Program-made: the position numbers and the translations under genes
Notes under the pieces: generated by a model
The model's input: only the letters and a program-made list of their open reading frames with translations
The model's database searches: none
Told to the model about the DNA's origin: nothing
Assembly: GCA_052055015.1 (NCBI GenBank)
Contig: JBQJIT010000004.1
Length of the DNA: 22,234 bases
Direction: 5' to 3' (one strand)
Origin: Malassezia furfur
Taxonomy: Eukaryota
In this document: piece by piece, positions 9,075-19,090 of the stretch
Layout: each line of letters starts with the position of its first letter
How positions within the stretch are numbered: the first letter of the stretch is position 1

Positions 9075-9259
9075 TCTGTCGTTCGTTCCTAGTGTTGCTT
9101 TCACTCTGCCTCCACATATGCGCGTCGGGGCTCCAGCGACGCGTTGGTGCGCACTGATTTGGCTCAGTGGGCTGCACGTGAGCGAAAGTGACACAAGCCG
9201 CGGATACAGCCAGCCAAACGCGTCGGCTGCCCACGCATTCGTCTTCCGCCTGACCCGCG

Positions 9260-12200
9260 ATGATCGATGCCCAGGTGCCGCCCACGGGCCCTGCGGCTGG
9301 CGGTGCGGAGGACGAGCTGGCTACTCAGCTGTGCCACCGCTACTACCAAGGGATCTTTTATACCCAAATCCAGGAGAGTGTGTTGGTGGTGCTCAACCCC
9401 TTCCACACGCCGGTGGATGTGAATGGTGAAGAGACGCTGCGAGAGTATTGCCGCGCGTACCGTGACATGCGGTACACGACGAGCGACCGCAGCGTTCCGC
9501 CACATATCTTCCGTACGGCATCCGATGCCTATTTCTACATGCAGCGCACCGGCCAGGATCAAGCGCTCTTTTTCCTTGGCGAAACGGCGAGCGGAAAAAG
9601 CGAGGCACGTCGCCTTGCTGTGCGCGCAATTGTGGCACTCTCTGTGGCACTTCCCGGGAAGCGTGGCGCGCGACTTGGAGCGCAGTTACCAGCGGCGCAG
9701 TTCGCCATGGAGTGTTTTGGGAACGCCGAGTCGGACGAGAACCGTAATGCGTCCGGCATGGCGCTTTATTCCGAGCTGCAGTTTAGCAAAAACGGGCGAC
9801 TGGTCGGTATGAAGATGCTCAACTACTACCTTGAGCGCAGCCGGGTGTCGCCGCTACGCAGCATGGAGCGCACCTTCCACGTATTTTACCTGTTGATTGC
9901 CGGTGCCTCTCCCGAGGACCGCAACCGCTGGCGGTTTGACGATGTCCCGAGTTTCCGCCTGCTCACTGCGGGCGGCCGCGGTGCGCCGGTCAGCAGTGCT
10001 GAACAACTGGCTGGGCGGTACGCGCGCCTGCTGCATGCGCTCGACGTCGTCGGCATGCCGCCGGTGCAGCGCGCGGCAATGCTGGATGTGCTCGCGGCAA
10101 TTCTGCACCTGTCCAATTTGGACTTCGTGCGCGACAGCGGTCCCCACACGGCGGCACGCGTCACGTCTGAAGAACCACTGTATATTGCTGCGTCGTTGTT
10201 GGGCGTCGGTGCGAGTGCACTGGCGAATGCGGTGACGCACCTGACCAAAGTCGTGCGCGGCGACCTTTGCACCATTATGCTCGATGCCAATGGCGCTGCC
10301 GCGAACCGGGATGCGCTTATGCGCATGCTCTACTCGCTGTTGTTTGCGTGGCTGAATGAATTCCTTAACCAACACCTGTCCAGCGACCAGTTCCACGCGT
10401 ACATCGGTCTGCTCGATACGCCAGGGTGGACAAACCGTGTGCACAACTCGCTCGATCAGTTCGCGGTTAACTTTATGGCGGACACCGTGCATCGGCACAT
10501 GGCCGCGACGCTGCTGGAGCGCCGCACGGATGAGATGGACCGCGAAGGACTGTCGCACATGGCGCCGCTGCCCGTCGCGGCGGACGAGGCCGAGAGGCTT
10601 CGTCTGCTGACGCACTTCCCCGGCGGCCTGGTACACATCATGGACGACCAGACGCGCCGGCGTCCGCGCAAGACGGACGAGACGATGGTCACAGCGATGC
10701 AGAGGCGTTGGGTGAACCACGCGGCACTGCACATCGACACGTCCGACTCGCTAGGCCCCCCTTCGTTTGTCGTGACCCACTTCCACAGTGAGGTGTCGTA
10801 CGACCCGCACGCGTGGTTGGAGCGCAACGACGAGTCGTTTGCTCTGGAGCACGTATCGTTGCTGCGCGGCGCTGACCGGTCCCCCGACGGCACGACAGGG
10901 ATGGGCTCGTCGAACGCGTTTATCCGCAACCTGTTCAAGACTGCGGCGGTCTGGACGCAGCTGCCGATGCCCGACGGCGCCAATTTGCAGGGTACGCAGG
11001 CGGCGCTGCGTCCCCTGCGCGCCCCGTCAACAATCCGTGCACGGCGCAACGGCACGCTGCGGGGCGCCGCGTCGGGTCGCGCGCGCGACACCGACGCCGA
11101 CGAAGACACGTACGGGAGTGACCTGCAGCGTACGCCGGCCGTCGCGAAGCATGAGATGCCGTGTGTGCTGGGCGAGCTACAGAATGCGCTCGGCACGCTC
11201 ATGGAGGTCGTCGACGACGCTAAGCCGTGGTTCGTGCTGTGTGTGCGCCCCAACACGAACCAGCTCGCGAACCAGTGTGAGGCGCGCATGGTGCGCCGAC
11301 AGACGCACGCGCTGGGCCTTGCGCGCCTGCGTCACGGCCACGCGCGCGACTACAGCGTGACGCTGACCTATACCGAGTTCTGCGACCGGTACGGCACGTT
11401 GCCCGGTCTCGACTCGCTGCAGTTGCTGGGTGCGCCGAGTGCCGAGGCCAAGATGCGCGTGAGCGATGCATGTGCACTGATGAACTGGACCGATGCCTAC
11501 GTCGCAATGGGCATTCACAAGGTCTTTTTGTCGCATGACGTATTCCGCGAGCTAGAGGACAGTTTGCGCCAGCGCGACCCCGAAGAGGTGCAGTATACGC
11601 TGCGAAAGGCGGCCGCGGAAGACGACACGCCCGTGCAGGACGAGCCGTACTCGCCGTACATCGATGCGCCGCACGCGCCCGAGGACCTGCCGAACCCGTT
11701 CGAGGTGGTGGACGCGCCCCCGGCCGCCGCCTTTACGTATGCAGGCGAAGTCGACGCTGAAGAAACGCACAGCCTGTTGCAGCGCGATGCTGCCTCAGAA
11801 AAGGGGTGGGCGGACGAGTCCGTGTTTATGGACGACGCGCTGGATGCCGGCCCGGGCGACACTGGGACGGCCGATGGGCCGCGGGTCACCGAGAAGCTGC
11901 GCGTCTCGGCACTGCGGCGGCACTGGGTGGCATTAACGTGGTTGTTCACGTGGTGGATCCCGTCGCTGGTGCTGAAGCGGTTCAAGCGGTTCAAGCGGTC
12001 GGACGTGCGCATGGCGTGGCGCGAGAAGCTGCTGATCAACATGATCATCTGGTTCATCTGCCTGTGCTCCATCTTTGTAATTGTGTTTTTGGGCAACGTG
12101 GTGTGCCCGACGCAGCACCTATACAGCACCACGGAGCTGTCTGGCTACAAAGGCAAGCATGCATACACGGCGATCCGTGGCGAAGTGTTCAACCTGAACG

Positions 12201-15076
12201 GCATCATATCGGGCCACCGCGCAGCGATCCCCGTCATCTCGAGCAAGACGCTGCAGCAGTATGCGGGCACCGACGCGACCAACATCTTCCCTGTCCAGGT
12301 CAACGCGCTGTGCAACGGCGTCACGGGCAGCATCTCGCCCTGGGTCACGCTCGACAACAACAACAACACGGACGCCAACGCCCAGTACCACGATTTCCGT
12401 GCGTACCGTGGCGTGGATGTACGCCCCGACTGGTATTACGAGCAGATGTGGTACATGCGCAGCCGCTTCCGTGTGGGGATGATTGGGTACACGCCCAAGG
12501 AGATCGACAACGCCAAGCAGGACGGCCGGACGCTCGCGGTGTACAACAAGGAGATTTACGAGATCACCGACTACATCTCCCAGGGCAACCAGGGCGGTGT
12601 GCTGGTGCCTGACGGCATGGCGCCCCCACCCAACCTGGACCGCACGATTTTGGCCCCAGAGATTGTGAGTCTCATGGCACAGAACCCCGGGGCAGATATT
12701 ACGCAGCAGCTGGACCGCCTGCCGCTCGATCCAGCAGTGCTGGGCCGGCAGCGTGTGTGTTTGCGCAACCTGTACTTTATCGGGAGGCTCGACGAGCGCA
12801 ATTCGGCTCGGTGCACCTTTTCCAAGTACATCCTGCTCGCGCTCTCGGTCATTATGGTTGCTACCATCGGTTTCAAGTTCTTTGCGGCGCTACAGTTTGG
12901 CGGCGCGCGACCACCAGAGGAGCAAGACAAGTTTGTGATCTGCCAGGTGCCGTGTTACACCGAGGACACCGACTCGATCCGTAAGACGGTCAACTCGCTG
13001 GCCAAGCTCAAGTACGACGACCGGCGCAAGTTGCTCATCCTCGTCTGTGACGGCAATATTGTGGGCGCGGGCAACGATGCGCCCACGCCACAGCTCGTTC
13101 TTGATTTGCTCGGCGCTGACACAAGCCAAGAGGCGGAGCCGTACAGTTTTGTGTCGCTTGGCGAGGGCAGCAAGCAGCACAACATGGCGCGTGTCTACAG
13201 CGGACTGTACGAGCACGCCGGACATATGGTACCATACCTGGTGATCGCCAAGTGCGGACGCCCCACTGAGACCACCAAGCCGGGCAACCGCGGGAAGCGC
13301 GACTCGCAGCTGGTGCTGATGCGCTTTTTGAACAAGGTGCACTTCGGTCTACCCATGTGCCCGCTCGAGCTTGAGATGTACCACCAGATCAAGAACGTCA
13401 TCGGGGTCAACCCGTCGTTCTACGAGTACATCCTGCAGGTGGACGCCGACACCGAAGTCGAGCCCACGGCGCTCACGCGCATGGTCGCAAGCTTTGTGCA
13501 CGACAAGAAGATCATTGGGTTGTGTGGCGAGACGGCCATATCCAATGAGCAACAGAGTCTCACGACGATGCTACAGGTGTACGAGTACTACATCTCGCAC
13601 CACATGGTCAAGGCGTTTGAAAGCCTGTTTGGCTCGATCACCTGTTTGCCGGGGTGCTTCTCCATGTTCCGCATCCGCACGCCGGACACACAGCGCCCGC
13701 TATTCATCGCCAATAGCGTGCTGGAGGACTACTCGGAGAACCGTGTCGATACCCTGCACCTCAAGAACCTGCTGTACCTCGGTGAGGACCGCTACCTTAC
13801 TACGCTTGTGCTCAAGCACTTCCCGGACTACAAGACGGTATTTGTGCGCCATGCACGCTGCACCACCACCGTGCCGGACAGCTGGCGCGTGCTTCTCTCG
13901 CAGCGGCGCCGTTGGATCAATTCGACCGTGCACAACCTTGTCGAGCTGCTGCGCACTCCGCAGCTGTGTGGTTTCTGCTTGTTCTCAATGCGCTTCGTCG
14001 TGATGCTAGACCTGCTCTCGACCATCATTGCACCGGTAACGATTGGCTACCTCGTTTACCTCGTCGTGGTGGTCTCGGTGGATGGCGGTACCATCCCGCT
14101 CACTTCCATCATGCTTCTCGCGGCGATCTACGGCCTGCAGGCGATCATCTTCCTGCTGCACCGCCGCTTTGATATGATCGGATGGATGGTGGTGTATATT
14201 CTCGCACTGCCTGTCTGGTCTCTCATCCTCCCGCTCTATTCCTTCTGGCACATGGACGACTTCTCGTGGGGCAATACGCGTATCGTCACCGGGGAGAACG
14301 GTGAAAAACTGGTGGTGCACAACGAAGGTACCTTCGACCCCGCTGAGATCCCGCACATGACCTGGGAAGAGTACGAAAACGGCCTCTGGGAGAACCGCAC
14401 GGGCGTCTCCGACCCCGAGGCGTTTGCGCGCCACGTGCCAATGAGCAAGTCGACGCGTGCGCTACTCCAGCGCAACCCGAGCCTGTACGGGTACGCGTCG
14501 CACCCCGTGCCAGAGTACACGGAGCCGGAGGCGATGTACGCCAGCTACTACACCGACGAATCCGACCCGCGTCTGTCCAAGCCTCCACTCGACGAAGCTC
14601 CAGACGCGTCGTGGGGTGCGCACGAATCCGTCTCGCTACTCCCTCGCGGCGGTGGCTACGACATGGCACCGTCTGCAAAGCGGCCCTTCAGCCTCGCAAC
14701 CTACAACCCCTCGTCCGTGGGACACGGCACCGAGTACAAGGACGACGCCTATGGTCTCGATCCGCCACATGCCGAGCCGCTCATCGACACGCATCCGGCG
14801 CCGATGCAGCCGAGCGCGTACACCTATGAGTCGGCTGCACCGGCGCCTGCGTCCGTGCCTGCAACCCCTCCGACATTCGCCGAGGCGCGGCGAAACCGAC
14901 TGCCGCGTGATGAAGTGATCCGCTATGACATCCGGACGATCATTGCGCACAGCGATCTGACGACCGTCACCAAGCGACAGGTGCGCAATCAGCTCCAAGA
15001 ACGCTATGGGTGCCCGATTGACGAAAAGAAGGCCTACATCAATGCGCAGATCGAGGCGGCGCTGCGCGACGTGTGA
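9260..15076 (+). CDS. Chitin synthase with N-terminal myosin motor-like domain (class V, Mcs1/CsmA type), 1938 aa
   Basis: Single long ORF. Myosin-like head (PPHIF, P-loop GETASGKS, NYYLERSRV, ERTFHVFY), cytochrome b5-like region (AIRGEVFNL), GT2 motifs QVDADT, GEDRYLT and QRRRW (13901-13915), WHMDDFSWGNTR, and a C-terminal DEK_C-like domain. Confidence 0.96.
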   Translation: MIDAQVPPTGPAAGGAEDELATQLCHRYYQGIFYTQIQESVLVVLNPFHTPVDVNGEETLREYCRAYRDMRYTTSDRSVPPHIFRTASDAYFYMQRTGQDQALFFLGETASGKSEARRLAVRAIVALSVALPGKRGARLGAQLPAAQFAMECFGNAESDENRNASGMALYSELQFSKNGRLVGMKMLNYYLERSRVSPLRSMERTFHVFYLLIAGASPEDRNRWRFDDVPSFRLLTAGGRGAPVSSAEQLAGRYARLLHALDVVGMPPVQRAAMLDVLAAILHLSNLDFVRDSGPHTAARVTSEEPLYIAASLLGVGASALANAVTHLTKVVRGDLCTIMLDANGAAANRDALMRMLYSLLFAWLNEFLNQHLSSDQFHAYIGLLDTPGWTNRVHNSLDQFAVNFMADTVHRHMAATLLERRTDEMDREGLSHMAPLPVAADEAERLRLLTHFPGGLVHIMDDQTRRRPRKTDETMVTAMQRRWVNHAALHIDTSDSLGPPSFVVTHFHSEVSYDPHAWLERNDESFALEHVSLLRGADRSPDGTTGMGSSNAFIRNLFKTAAVWTQLPMPDGANLQGTQAALRPLRAPSTIRARRNGTLRGAASGRARDTDADEDTYGSDLQRTPAVAKHEMPCVLGELQNALGTLMEVVDDAKPWFVLCVRPNTNQLANQCEARMVRRQTHALGLARLRHGHARDYSVTLTYTEFCDRYGTLPGLDSLQLLGAPSAEAKMRVSDACALMNWTDAYVAMGIHKVFLSHDVFRELEDSLRQRDPEEVQYTLRKAAAEDDTPVQDEPYSPYIDAPHAPEDLPNPFEVVDAPPAAAFTYAGEVDAEETHSLLQRDAASEKGWADESVFMDDALDAGPGDTGTADGPRVTEKLRVSALRRHWVALTWLFTWWIPSLVLKRFKRFKRSDVRMAWREKLLINMIIWFICLCSIFVIVFLGNVVCPTQHLYSTTELSGYKGKHAYTAIRGEVFNLNGIISGHRAAIPVISSKTLQQYAGTDATNIFPVQVNALCNGVTGSISPWVTLDNNNNTDANAQYHDFRAYRGVDVRPDWYYEQMWYMRSRFRVGMIGYTPKEIDNAKQDGRTLAVYNKEIYEITDYISQGNQGGVLVPDGMAPPPNLDRTILAPEIVSLMAQNPGADITQQLDRLPLDPAVLGRQRVCLRNLYFIGRLDERNSARCTFSKYILLALSVIMVATIGFKFFAALQFGGARPPEEQDKFVICQVPCYTEDTDSIRKTVNSLAKLKYDDRRKLLILVCDGNIVGAGNDAPTPQLVLDLLGADTSQEAEPYSFVSLGEGSKQHNMARVYSGLYEHAGHMVPYLVIAKCGRPTETTKPGNRGKRDSQLVLMRFLNKVHFGLPMCPLELEMYHQIKNVIGVNPSFYEYILQVDADTEVEPTALTRMVASFVHDKKIIGLCGETAISNEQQSLTTMLQVYEYYISHHMVKAFESLFGSITCLPGCFSMFRIRTPDTQRPLFIANSVLEDYSENRVDTLHLKNLLYLGEDRYLTTLVLKHFPDYKTVFVRHARCTTTVPDSWRVLLSQRRRWINSTVHNLVELLRTPQLCGFCLFSMRFVVMLDLLSTIIAPVTIGYLVYLVVVVSVDGGTIPLTSIMLLAAIYGLQAIIFLLHRRFDMIGWMVVYILALPVWSLILPLYSFWHMDDFSWGNTRIVTGENGEKLVVHNEGTFDPAEIPHMTWEEYENGLWENRTGVSDPEAFARHVPMSKSTRALLQRNPSLYGYASHPVPEYTEPEAMYASYYTDESDPRLSKPPLDEAPDASWGAHESVSLLPRGGGYDMAPSAKRPFSLATYNPSSVGHGTEYKDDAYGLDPPHAEPLIDTHPAPMQPSAYTYESAAPAPASVPATPPTFAEARRNRLPRDEVIRYDIRTIIAHSDLTTVTKRQVRNQLQERYGCPIDEKKAYINAQIEAALRDV

Positions 15077-15123: not shown

Positions 15124-16247
15124 TTAGCGCATGATTTCTTCGTAGATCAATCGTTTCAGCTCTTCACGCGACAGCGGCGCCTTGGCCGAGTCGGCATCAA
15201 AGAAGCTCGGGTCCAGCGGCTCGGCGTCCGGCTCGTCATTGGGGTCGTGATAGGGCTCAAGGTAGGGATGGGCTAGCGCGTCTTCCACAGTGATGCGCTT
15301 CCGAGGCGAGAACTCGAGGAGCCGCTCGAGCAGGTCAATGGCAAGCGGGTCGGCATTCGGGAAGAGTGTCGCAAAGTTTTTGCGCTTGCAGAAGGGGAGG
15401 GAGCGGATGTAGTCCCGCGACCGAGCCGAGTTGATCGCATAAAAGTCGTCCAGCGACGGAGTGCCCAGCACTTCAAGGATCAGTGACAGCTGGTGGTGGT
15501 AATCGCGTCCGGGGAAGAGCGGGCGGCCCGAGAGCATTTCGGCGAAGATGCAGCCAACGGACCAGAGGTCGATGGCCTTGGTATATTCCTTGAAGGTAAG
15601 CATGATTTCCGGCGCCCGGTACCACCGTGTCGCAACATATTCCGTCAGGAACGCCTTGCCGTCCGGCTCCGGCTGGTCCGCACTGCGTGCAAGACCAAAG
15701 TCGCAAATCTTCAGGTCGCAATTGGCGTTCAAGAGCAGGTTAGTCGGCTTCAAGTCGCGGTGCAAAACGCCCGCCGAGTGCAGCGCCTTGAGGCCACGCA
15801 GGATTTGATAGACAAAGTATTGATAATGGTCATTGGATAGATTCTGCGTCCGGATCACGCGATGCATGTCCGTCTCCATAAGCTCCTGGATGAGGTGCAC
15901 TTCGGTAAACGACTCGAGCGACGCGGGCCGAACGATGTCGAGAATGGAGATGATGTTCTCGTGGTGAAAGTGGCGCAGCAGCCGGATTTCCCGCAGTGTG
16001 CGCAGGCAGAACATCTGATGGTCAAACGGCGAGATGCGCTTGACAGCGACGCGCGTGGACGTGGGCAGGTGTACGGCCGAACTGGGTGAGCAATAGACCA
16101 ACGTACTACACCACGCCGTAGGCGCCCTCGCCCACGGTCTTGATCAGGCGGGCGGTATGTTCCGCCCAGCTGTGGTCCTGCAGTACCATCTGTGGTCGTC
16201 GGTGCGACGGAGGTCGCGCCCGCACGCGTAGGGTCGACGTTATTCAT
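15124..16247 (-). CDS. MAP kinase of the Fus3/Kss1 (Kpp2/Ubc3-like, TEY) class; exon 1 carries an apparent 4-bp frameshift
   Basis: Exon 2 is 16081-15124; 25-nt intron 16106-16082. Motifs [60 protein letters not shown] 16247 is out of frame because GCGG is duplicated at 16148-16155; ATG 16189 is in frame (346 aa). Confidence 0.9.
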
Positions 16248-16522: not shown

Positions 16523-19090
16523 ATGCCACAGGCCTATGCGCTATCGCAGCAGGGGGTAGGAGCTAATGCTCATCCTCGTCGCCCTCCATCAACCTGGTCA
16601 GCTGCATCCAGGGACAATCATGATGGGGCCGACGATCGTGTGAAGTACTCCCACTCAGGGGTCAACATCCTCGACATTCTCACGCGCGTGAGCCAGCGCA
16701 GCTCTCCGCAGGTGAGTTTGGGGCCGGTGGATATGACTTGCGCGATGAGCGTTGCACGTGTTTCTGTCAACAACGCATCCCGCATGCTACAGATCGAATA
16801 CGGGGATGTTAGCGACGAGTTTTTGCGGCTCGTGGGACAGACGCGCGATCGTGTCGTAGGCCAAGAGCCTGGAAATGTACTCCCATGTGCCAACTATGAG
16901 GTGCAGCGCGTGCGCCGAATGTACGCGGCAGCAGCGAATGGTGTAGAACAGCAGGCGGTGATGGAGCTGACAGGTCCCAAACAGCAAACATTCTATGTGC
17001 TCATGACGTTGATTCCGCTGCGATACACGGGTCGCCGAGATCATCGCGCAATTTCTCGCGGCATTGAGTGGATTGTGGGCTTTCAGGCGGAAGTGACGCC
17101 GGGTGACCTCCCACACATGCTAAGTCTTATCCACAACAGCCAAGGACCGTTGGACCCGTTGGAGCCGCAGAAACTCGCCAAGGAGTCGCCAAGCAAGCCC
17201 CCGCCTCCCGAGACCTCGCATGAATGGCATGACCTCGTGGCCGAGACAGGTGATGCGGGGACCGTGTACTTCGTTACCTGGCATGACGTCCTACAATATG
17301 TCTCAGCGTCCGTCGAAACCCAACTTGGCTACCGCGCCGACGAGCTAATCGGCAAGCCCGTGGAGGAGCTGTGTCATCCAAACGACATGGTTGCGCTCTT
17401 CCGTGAGCTCAAAGGGATCAAGAACAAGACGGGCAAAATGCCCAATGCCCGTGCGCGATTTCCAGTCAAGCCTGTGCGCCTCGACGAGAGCGTATCACAG
17501 CACATGATCCTCGCTGAGGTCAATGGCCTGCTGCGTTTCAAACACAAGACTGAGGGGCTTATCTGGATGGAATCATCGGCGCGCCTTGTGCAGCAGCAGG
17601 GCGCTCCTGGACGACGGGCGCGCTCGGTAATTGCTGTTTCGGGATGGCGTCACAAAAATCCGATGGCGTCTCAATCGGATCTACTCGACGGAAAGAGAAT
17701 GGCCAATTCACCCAAGGTCGTGCAGGCCCAGGTGATGCAGCTTGCACAGGCGCAACAAGCACAAGCCAAGCAGGCACAGATACAACAGACACAACAGACA
17801 CAGCTGCAGCAGGCACAGCTACGACAGGCACAGGTTCAGCAGGCACAGGCTCAGCAGGCACAGGCCCAGCAGGCACAAACCCAGCAGGCACAGGCCCAGC
17901 AGGCACAGGCTCAGCACGCCGCCGACCAGGCCAAGCACGCTGCCATGCAAGCACAGCAGGCTGCCCAGCAAGCGCGACGTGTACAGGAGGTGCAGCACGC
18001 ACAGCACGCACAGCACGCACAGCAGATGCAGCGTGTCGAACAAGAGCGCGCTACGCACTCGCGCTCGGCGTCGATGGAGAACAAGGCCCACCCCAATCTG
18101 CCCTTGTGGCTGACACTTTCGGCCATGGGTCTGATTCTGCAGTGCTTTGAGCAGACCGACGCCGACACGGTGCAGCCTGTGGACGAGCCCGAGATCCCTC
18201 TGCGGATTGGTTTTGTGCTTCCGAATGTGATGCAGCAAGAGGTCATGCTCCAGATCCAGAAGGCATTTATGCATGGCGCAAAGCAGCCCGTGAGCATCGC
18301 TACATGGATCTCCAATACGCCCGTGATCACCACCTGGATTCCGCTCTCGCCGGAGCTTACGAGTCCGTCGCTGGAGCAGATGGGTGTGCAGATGTTGGTG
18401 CGTTTGGACATTTGCCGCAACGGCTTTGATCGTGCGCCGCATCGGCTCTTTTCCCCGGACGAGGCGTGGTTGACGGTGCCTTCGGGGTTGCGGCAAAACG
18501 GCCCAGAGGAGGCGACGTTGGAGCCGACCGCCCCGACGCTTGCGTCCTTCGATATGGGTCCCTCGCCCTCGCAGGTATCTGACCGGTCGTCGTCCGTGGT
18601 CAGTGGCCAAAACTTTTTCCCATGGGGCTCCAGCGATGAGGCCTGGTCGCAATGGTCACACTTTCGCGGACCCAGCGCTGAAGAACCAGATCCGCTGACA
18701 CCTGGCTCAATTTCATCGTTACTGTGGAACATCAGTTCAACCAGCGACACAGGGATGGACACCGACGGTGGACAGAGGACGCCGACGTCGGTACCGATGC
18801 AAGGCGCTAGAACGCGCGACGCCGACTTGTCGCAGTATACATCGCACTTTTCGGCGCCGCTTGCGGCGGGGATGAACACGGCCGCGCCGCTCGTCGGCAT
18901 GCCTCTCAATGAGTTTTTAACCCAAAGCGGGCTAACGCCGATCCCGTCGGACAGCCTGCCGGGCGCAGAGAAGAATTGGTCCGCGGAGATGTTCCCAGTG
19001 TCGATGTCGTCCAATGCGCCGTCGCACTACATCTCGGACACCTCCCAACATCAAGCGCAGTCGCATGACTTCGGTTTTTGGCCCTACTAA
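16523..19090 (+). CDS. White collar-1-like protein with degenerate LOV domain, PAS domain and Gln/Ala-rich repeat, about 855 aa
   Basis: WC-1-like pre-LOV cap ([33 protein letters not shown]), LOV-like core ending WIVGFQ, and PAS segment [39 protein letters not shown]. No GATA finger, as expected for basidiomycete WC-1. First ATG at 16523. Confidence 0.75.
17740..18030 (+). repeat. Coding minisatellite: 15-nt CAGCAGGCACAGGCY units (QQAQA), then 9-nt CAGCACGCA units (QHA)
   Basis: Directly visible tandem units at about 17806-17915, and QHA x3 at about 17993-18019. Confidence 0.85.

Follow-up and report, generated by a model that had tools for sequence, protein, structure and literature searches.

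In U. maydis, the Kpp4-Fuz7-Kpp2 cascade serves the pheromone response and filamentation (PMC7766764, in extract). Malassezia furfur comprises P1 and P2 lineages that are 89% similar, with CBS9595 as the P1 reference, and the accessible portion of PMC9040865 describes its hybrids as diploid or aneuploid and includes hybrids in which loss of heterozygosity has left a single MAT a type. According to excerpts of a 2026 preprint (PMC13405305), M. furfur undergoes mating and a parasexual cycle, while hybrids with an incomplete MAT system remain yeast-like. Excerpts of PMC10410736 report hyphae together with KPP6 up-regulation in engineered strains; none of six terms for the cascade was found in the searchable text of four of its supplementary files. 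With respect to gene loss after hybridization, 27 read-confirmed inactivations of one homeolog with the partner intact are described for Zygosaccharomyces parabailii (PMC5433688, in extract), and de novo duplications of 1-4 bp are a known product of Top2 breaks and end joining (bioRxiv 10.1101/2020.05.03.075358, in extract).

Here we describe a 22,234-nucleotide stretch of an M. furfur assembly (GCA_052055015.1, contig JBQJIT010000004.1; hereafter the window), whose minus strand carries a kpp2-type MAP kinase (MAPK) gene that is interrupted, as assembled, by a 4-bp tandem duplication. Judging from the assembled sequence, we put at about 60% the probability that this is a real, recent loss of function in one of the two homeologous kpp2 genes carried by an M. 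furfur hybrid of P1 and P2.

A frameshifted kinase gene and its intact homeolog

The plus strand at 16148-16155 reads GCGGGCGG, corresponding to two tandem copies of CCGC on the minus strand (TA-CCGC-CCGC-CTG at 16155-16148), and the window contains no N. When aligned with the syntenic contig G000:C68 (85.3% identity over 21 kb), the site forms a clean 4-base gap with matching flanks, so the repeat is an insertion and not a chance repetition. The duplication (16148..16155, minus strand) lies in exon 1 of the kinase gene (16107..16247, minus strand) and shifts the frame after codon 32. Translation from the conserved start, ATG 16247, which aligns to the homeolog start, and splicing of a 25-nt GT-AG intron (16106-16082 on the minus strand, i.e. 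16082..16106) gives a product of 66 aa that ends at a premature TGA (16024-16022, i.e. 16022..16024, minus strand). The homeolog on G000:C68 carries the 4-mer once and the same intron at equal length, and its single open frame from this start, when spliced, encodes 364 aa identical to P0121, a named M. furfur protein, and identical over 364 aa to the M. furfur MAPK WFD45850.1 / KAI3627843.1 'tmk1'. A preliminary description of this DNA had reported the 4-bp tandem duplication, the 66-aa truncated peptide and a 364-aa MAPK once one CCGC is removed; all three were reproduced, and 364 aa is the length of the homeolog as well as of both named M. furfur proteins.

Downstream of the frame break, exon 1 still holds the codons of the Gly-rich loop (GEGAYG, 16115..16132, minus strand), and exon 2 (15124..16081, minus strand), which encodes the remainder of the kinase domain, is open to its TAA and contains the VAVK, HRD, DFG, TEY, APE and YHDPxDEP motifs. 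Exon 2 matched PF00069 with an E value of 1.8e-56, and the Gly loop, Lys, HRD, DFG and APE of a kinase domain were all located. The activation-loop TEY (15637..15645, minus strand; residue 192) and YHDPNDEP at residue 323 were likewise found; we take the latter to be the C-terminal MAPK docking motif, and the motif names throughout are our own assignments. The window kinase was 80-82% identical to four proteins of smut relatives named Kpp2, compared with 57% for a second TEY paralog and 55% for the Hog1-type kinase, and the nearest solved structure to its intact P1 relative was Fus3 (E 6e-134). Separate Mpk1-type and Hog1-type genes, typed presumptively by their motifs, are present in the same assembly. 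These results bear out the earlier assignment to the Fus3/Kss1 type. A tree of 22 rows, U. maydis Kpp6 not among them, left 13 of 19 inner branches open; identity favours Kpp2 for the window gene, and the divergent TEY paralog (C53/C309) is a candidate Kpp6.

The assembly comprises 13,683,795 bases (13.68 Mb) in 1856 contigs, with kinases mostly in pairs, and 14 contig pairs aligned in 18 blocks at 77-90% identity, as found for two divergent subgenomes in one assembly. Over its first 32 residues the window copy is identical to the M. furfur MAPK KAI3626177.1 (P0122, the protein of the P1 reference CBS9595), and in exon 2 the two agree at 99%; by its sequence, the window represents the P1-type subgenome of a hybrid between P1 and P2. 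The copy on G000:C68, being non-P1 M. furfur sequence, is probably P2-type; GC polarity gave no reliable subgenome assignment. The annotated protein of the P1 haploid (P0122) is intact, the parental state being judged from this one annotated P1 protein. P0122 carries changes of its own (Gly136 and Ile363) that are absent from the window, the homeolog and P0131 and are possibly record errors. Because an intact kpp2 homeolog is kept in a two-subgenome hybrid, the organism is not a MAPK null, and the implication in the preliminary description that it may lack this kinase is not supported. The connection drawn there to a genus with no observed sexual cycle is also weak: the kinase is intact in haploid M. 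furfur and in other Malassezia, and the extracts of PMC13405305 report mating in M. furfur.

The kinase gene has close neighbours on both sides. A myosin-head chitin synthase (9254-15076, plus strand; 1940-codon open frame) lies tail-to-tail, 47 bp from the MAPK stop, and a PAS-domain protein (16523-19090, plus strand), which we take to be White-collar-like, lies head-to-head about 275 bp away and contains a Gln-rich repeat differing in length from that of its homeolog. At the start of the window, positions 1-711 align to G000:C68 11614-15037 as the remnant of a long gene, with gaps of 2.1 kb and 0.6 kb, about 70% DNA identity and 41-52% protein identity interrupted by stops; the partner on G000:C68 is a 1017-codon open frame, presumably sorting-nexin/Mdm1-like by its motifs, and the remnant looks older than the hybrid. 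Other neighbours include Rad51, Rad1, eIF5A, a Sel1-repeat protein, a C2H2 zinc finger, an amino-acid transporter and an Ap4A phosphorylase.

Probable loss of function, possible assembly error and possible rescue

The same allele carries a second private change. Residue 159 in the catalytic loop (HRDLKPTN; codon 15742..15744, minus strand) is Thr in the window, compared with Ser in 167/167 motif-bearing proteins and Thr in none (173 examined, 6 without the motif). Exon 2 is therefore somewhat less intact than the preliminary description held when it called the rest of the kinase intact, although its frame is indeed open and its motifs are present. A second private change at an invariant site of the same allele supports a real lesion, and so do the flanks of the duplication, which are purely P1-type and align cleanly, with no N or contig end nearby. 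Tandem copies of four nucleotides are, moreover, uncommon as short-read errors, whereas slippage and the end joining of Top2 breaks do generate them. Masking by the homeolog and the one-homeolog inactivations documented in Z. parabailii also favour a real lesion.

The core of the loss-of-function reading is observed directly, namely a frameshifted P1-type copy, an intact P2-type copy and an intact P1 haploid protein. The remaining steps can be sketched as follows. The duplication would date from shortly before hybridization or from some time after it, and would be the product either of replication slippage or of a 4-nt staggered break mended by end joining. A ribosome that initiates at ATG 16247 would reach a stop after 66 codons, and the mRNA would probably be cleared by nonsense-mediated decay, which is made likely by the two copies of UPF1 in the assembly. 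The P2 copy would supply the kinase, leaving the lesion masked and nearly neutral, and Ser159Thr would be one more change that a dead allele can tolerate. By leaky scanning, ribosomes could reach an internal ATG at 16189 and make a trace of a 346-aa variant lacking the conserved Tyr strand, as a by-product.

The preliminary description had left the choice between a recent change and an assembly error, and we keep both. Under the second, which we consider unlikely on balance and yet a serious competitor, both kpp2 copies of the strain are intact, and the duplication, perhaps with Ser159Thr, stems from a low-coverage GC-rich stretch of a difficult hybrid assembly. The fragmentation of the assembly into 1856 contigs is in keeping with such an error, and so is the position of the duplication in a GGC-rich run on the plus strand, GGC-rich runs being an error-prone context for Illumina. 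Exon 2 is otherwise near-identical to P1-type proteins, with 1 difference from P0131 in 296 aa. Exact look-up in a collection of 15 billion returned none of three window-specific proteins, so that no independent assembly backs the allele, while the Ser159 P1-type protein occurs on at least four contigs; a pattern scan of metagenomes for either allele gave five matches, all five unrelated and without a blastn match to the window. Against an error stand the clean, purely P1-type flanks, the rarity of 4-nt tandem copies among read errors and, if Ser159Thr is also wrong, the need for two independent errors in one 1.1-kb gene.

To place the lesion against its background, we surveyed frameshifts in homeologous contigs picked around kinase genes (14 pairs, 373,933 columns, approximately 200 gene pairs), with handling of introns; without it the nearby intron hid the MAPK lesion, and the sensitivity of the survey is imperfect. 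Among 224 indel clusters of a length not divisible by three, 75 fell in predicted introns, 138 failed the coding test and 11 passed; the latter, judged by eye, comprised 3 clear coding frameshifts, 1 intronic change and 7 that were not clearly coding. The MAPK duplication was thus accompanied by two other clear coding frameshifts in about 374 kb of aligned homeologs. In one, an extra G (+1) in a G run shifts the frame in one copy of a phosphatase that we take to be Psr1/FCP1-like (G000:C143 versus C101:8708); in the other, a +1 A in an A run just past intron 1 frameshifts one copy of a kinase, presumably of the CaMK type (G000:C62:9863 versus C36). No clear nonsense changes were found, as inspection by eye assigned each of the 6 of 104 candidates left after filtering of antisense shadow frames to such shadows or to intron sequence. 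Both other frameshifts being +1 changes in homopolymer runs, with no clear nonsense changes beside them, the pattern also fits an indel-prone assembly. Taken at face value, the two unselected events correspond to approximately 0.5% of gene copies, or about 37 genome-wide, with a very wide error, and these two further frameshifts place the MAPK lesion near background and make it unremarkable in kind. Nor was a tandem enrichment shown among four-base homeolog gaps, 4 of 45 of which scored as tandem.

The preliminary description had also proposed that an internal ATG could rescue the gene. In its strong form, a real hypomorph in which leaky scanning past ATG 16247 yields enough active 346-aa kinase to matter, we regard this as highly improbable. 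The geometry would permit it: ATG 16189 (16187..16189, minus strand) straddles the Asp-Gly codons and opens a frame of 346 aa, which runs into the kinase reading frame immediately upstream of the Gly-rich loop and retains that loop and every downstream motif, and the loss of the conserved Tyr from this product was likewise confirmed. The base at -3 of ATG 16247 is a pyrimidine (C), and N-terminal length upstream of the Gly loop varies widely among homologs. However, ATG 16189 also has a C at -3, and start context proved uninformative in our survey, in which 73 of 126 first ATGs and 867 of 1477 internal ATGs had a purine at -3. The lost Tyr (residue 31), with which the Pfam kinase model begins, occurs in 137 of 139 proteins in which the stretch could be located (173 examined), Ser159Thr strikes the catalytic loop, the premature stop should reduce the mRNA, and rescue is needless given the intact homeolog. 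The ATG itself appears incidental: the duplication alone brings it into the kinase frame, in the homeolog it is out of frame and opens 13 codons before a stop, and among the Malassezia ortholog N-termini compared none starts at this position. Rescue is thus possible by geometry only.

A normal gene structure, be it an alternative start, a cryptic intron or a programmed +1 ribosomal frameshift, is largely refuted and barely credible: frame-correcting GT-AG pairs exist on paper and the break falls at a CCG codon, which is shift-prone in S. cerevisiae, but the P1 haploid protein is colinear across the site, the P2 copy lacks the repeat, the cryptic splice sites are unconserved in the homeolog, and a signal for a frameshift or alternative start is absent from the homeolog and implied neither by the P1 protein nor by other Malassezia orthologs. 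The comparison with orthologs suggested in the preliminary description was run, and among the ortholog N-termini compared the alternative N-terminus is not the normal start. The claim that no GT-AG intron fits needs adjusting in its letter, as frame-correcting pairs with donors at 16238 and 16208 exist upstream, but these donors are non-consensus, and they and the nearby acceptors are absent in the homeolog, so the conclusion itself holds. Such cryptic introns were enumerated and dropped as non-consensus and unconserved.

Other members of the mating cascade

A second lesion was found elsewhere in the predicted cascade. The P1-type Ste11/Kpp4 copy, split across two contig ends, keeps its SAM domain and is identical at 416/416 residues to P0174, which clusters with CBS9595_003127. 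In the non-P1 copy, an in-frame 201-nt deletion between short repeats removes the whole SAM domain, with the junction at G000:C152 near 10451 (L100 ~935) when compared with G000:C88 (L099 744-944). The missing SAM piece was sought on small contigs and the candidate rejected, the SAM match on C1805 being without similarity to either Ste11 copy; the protein searches did not return a Ste11 protein of a P2-type haploid. Fuz7-like and Ubc2-like genes each form a pair of copies that is free of coding indels over the stretches covered (the 3' end of Ubc2 lies outside), and the second TEY kinase is present as two open frames. For the STE3-type pheromone receptor one locus was found (G000:C267 11523-12418; two matches, both on this contig). 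Partner copies were not found for a Mkk1-type MAP2K, an HMG-box gene and a homeobox match (G000:C328, G000:C75 and G000:C17), as expected from loss of heterozygosity or gaps. The cascade thus holds one lesion in eight unselected copies, which at the background rate has a probability of 0.04 to 0.12, with the limit that the background rate did not count large in-frame deletions as a class (none of at least 60 nt occurred inside a long aligned block).

The SAM-less Ste11/Kpp4 and the single receptor locus together hint at a reciprocal decay of the hybrid's mating MAPK cascade, in which one receptor locus would leave no compatible MAT A pair, the P1 Kpp2 would be lost through the frameshift and Ser159Thr, the other subgenome would have lost the SAM domain of its Kpp4/Ste11, and the only complete cascade would be a chimera of P1 Kpp4 and P2 Kpp2. 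We consider this scenario improbable. If it is true, the hybrid would depend on both of its subgenomes to mate and to grow as hyphae, most haploid segregants would be signalling-defective, and the yeast-locked state reported for hybrids with an incomplete MAT system would have a second cause.

Significance and comparison with described systems

As it stands, the locus is a spare copy of a known MAPK, either broken or mis-assembled, in a hybrid of a known kind. Its significance is small, as the strain keeps an intact kinase, and lies mainly in a caution for the annotation of duplicated hybrid assemblies. Should the MAPK lesion and the SAM-less Ste11/Kpp4 both be real, shared within a hybrid lineage and absent from both parents, they would represent a reciprocal loss inside one signalling cascade. 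In M. furfur, mating and hyphal growth have become newly testable, and hyphae are more efficient at invading skin models (PMC13405305, in extract). Our literature search, thin in its coverage of subscription papers, returned no title dealing with this allele or with lesions of MAPK genes in hybrids of Malassezia.

With regard to the known M. furfur MAPKs, the duplication and Ser159Thr are features of the window copy that are absent from WFD45850.1, KAI3627843.1 and KAI3626177.1. The gene resembles a member of the U. maydis Kpp2/Ubc3 cascade in that Ubc2-, Kpp4- and Fuz7-like genes are also present in the assembly, a likeness that is judged via the Kpp2-named proteins of smut relatives, with the function of the Malassezia gene predicted from sequence. 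As to origin, it shares with the Top2 and end-joining signature the duplication of a short unique segment inside the 1-4 bp size given in the available extract of bioRxiv 10.1101/2020.05.03.075358; a single event is, however, not assignable, and slippage gives the same outcome. The closest parallel is that of Z. parabailii, in which, as the extracts of PMC5433688 describe it, one homeolog is frameshifted with the partner intact, mostly in strain-private fashion and at a frequency of similar order, although those lesions were confirmed by two technologies and in a different phylum, whereas the lesion described here is read from the assembly.
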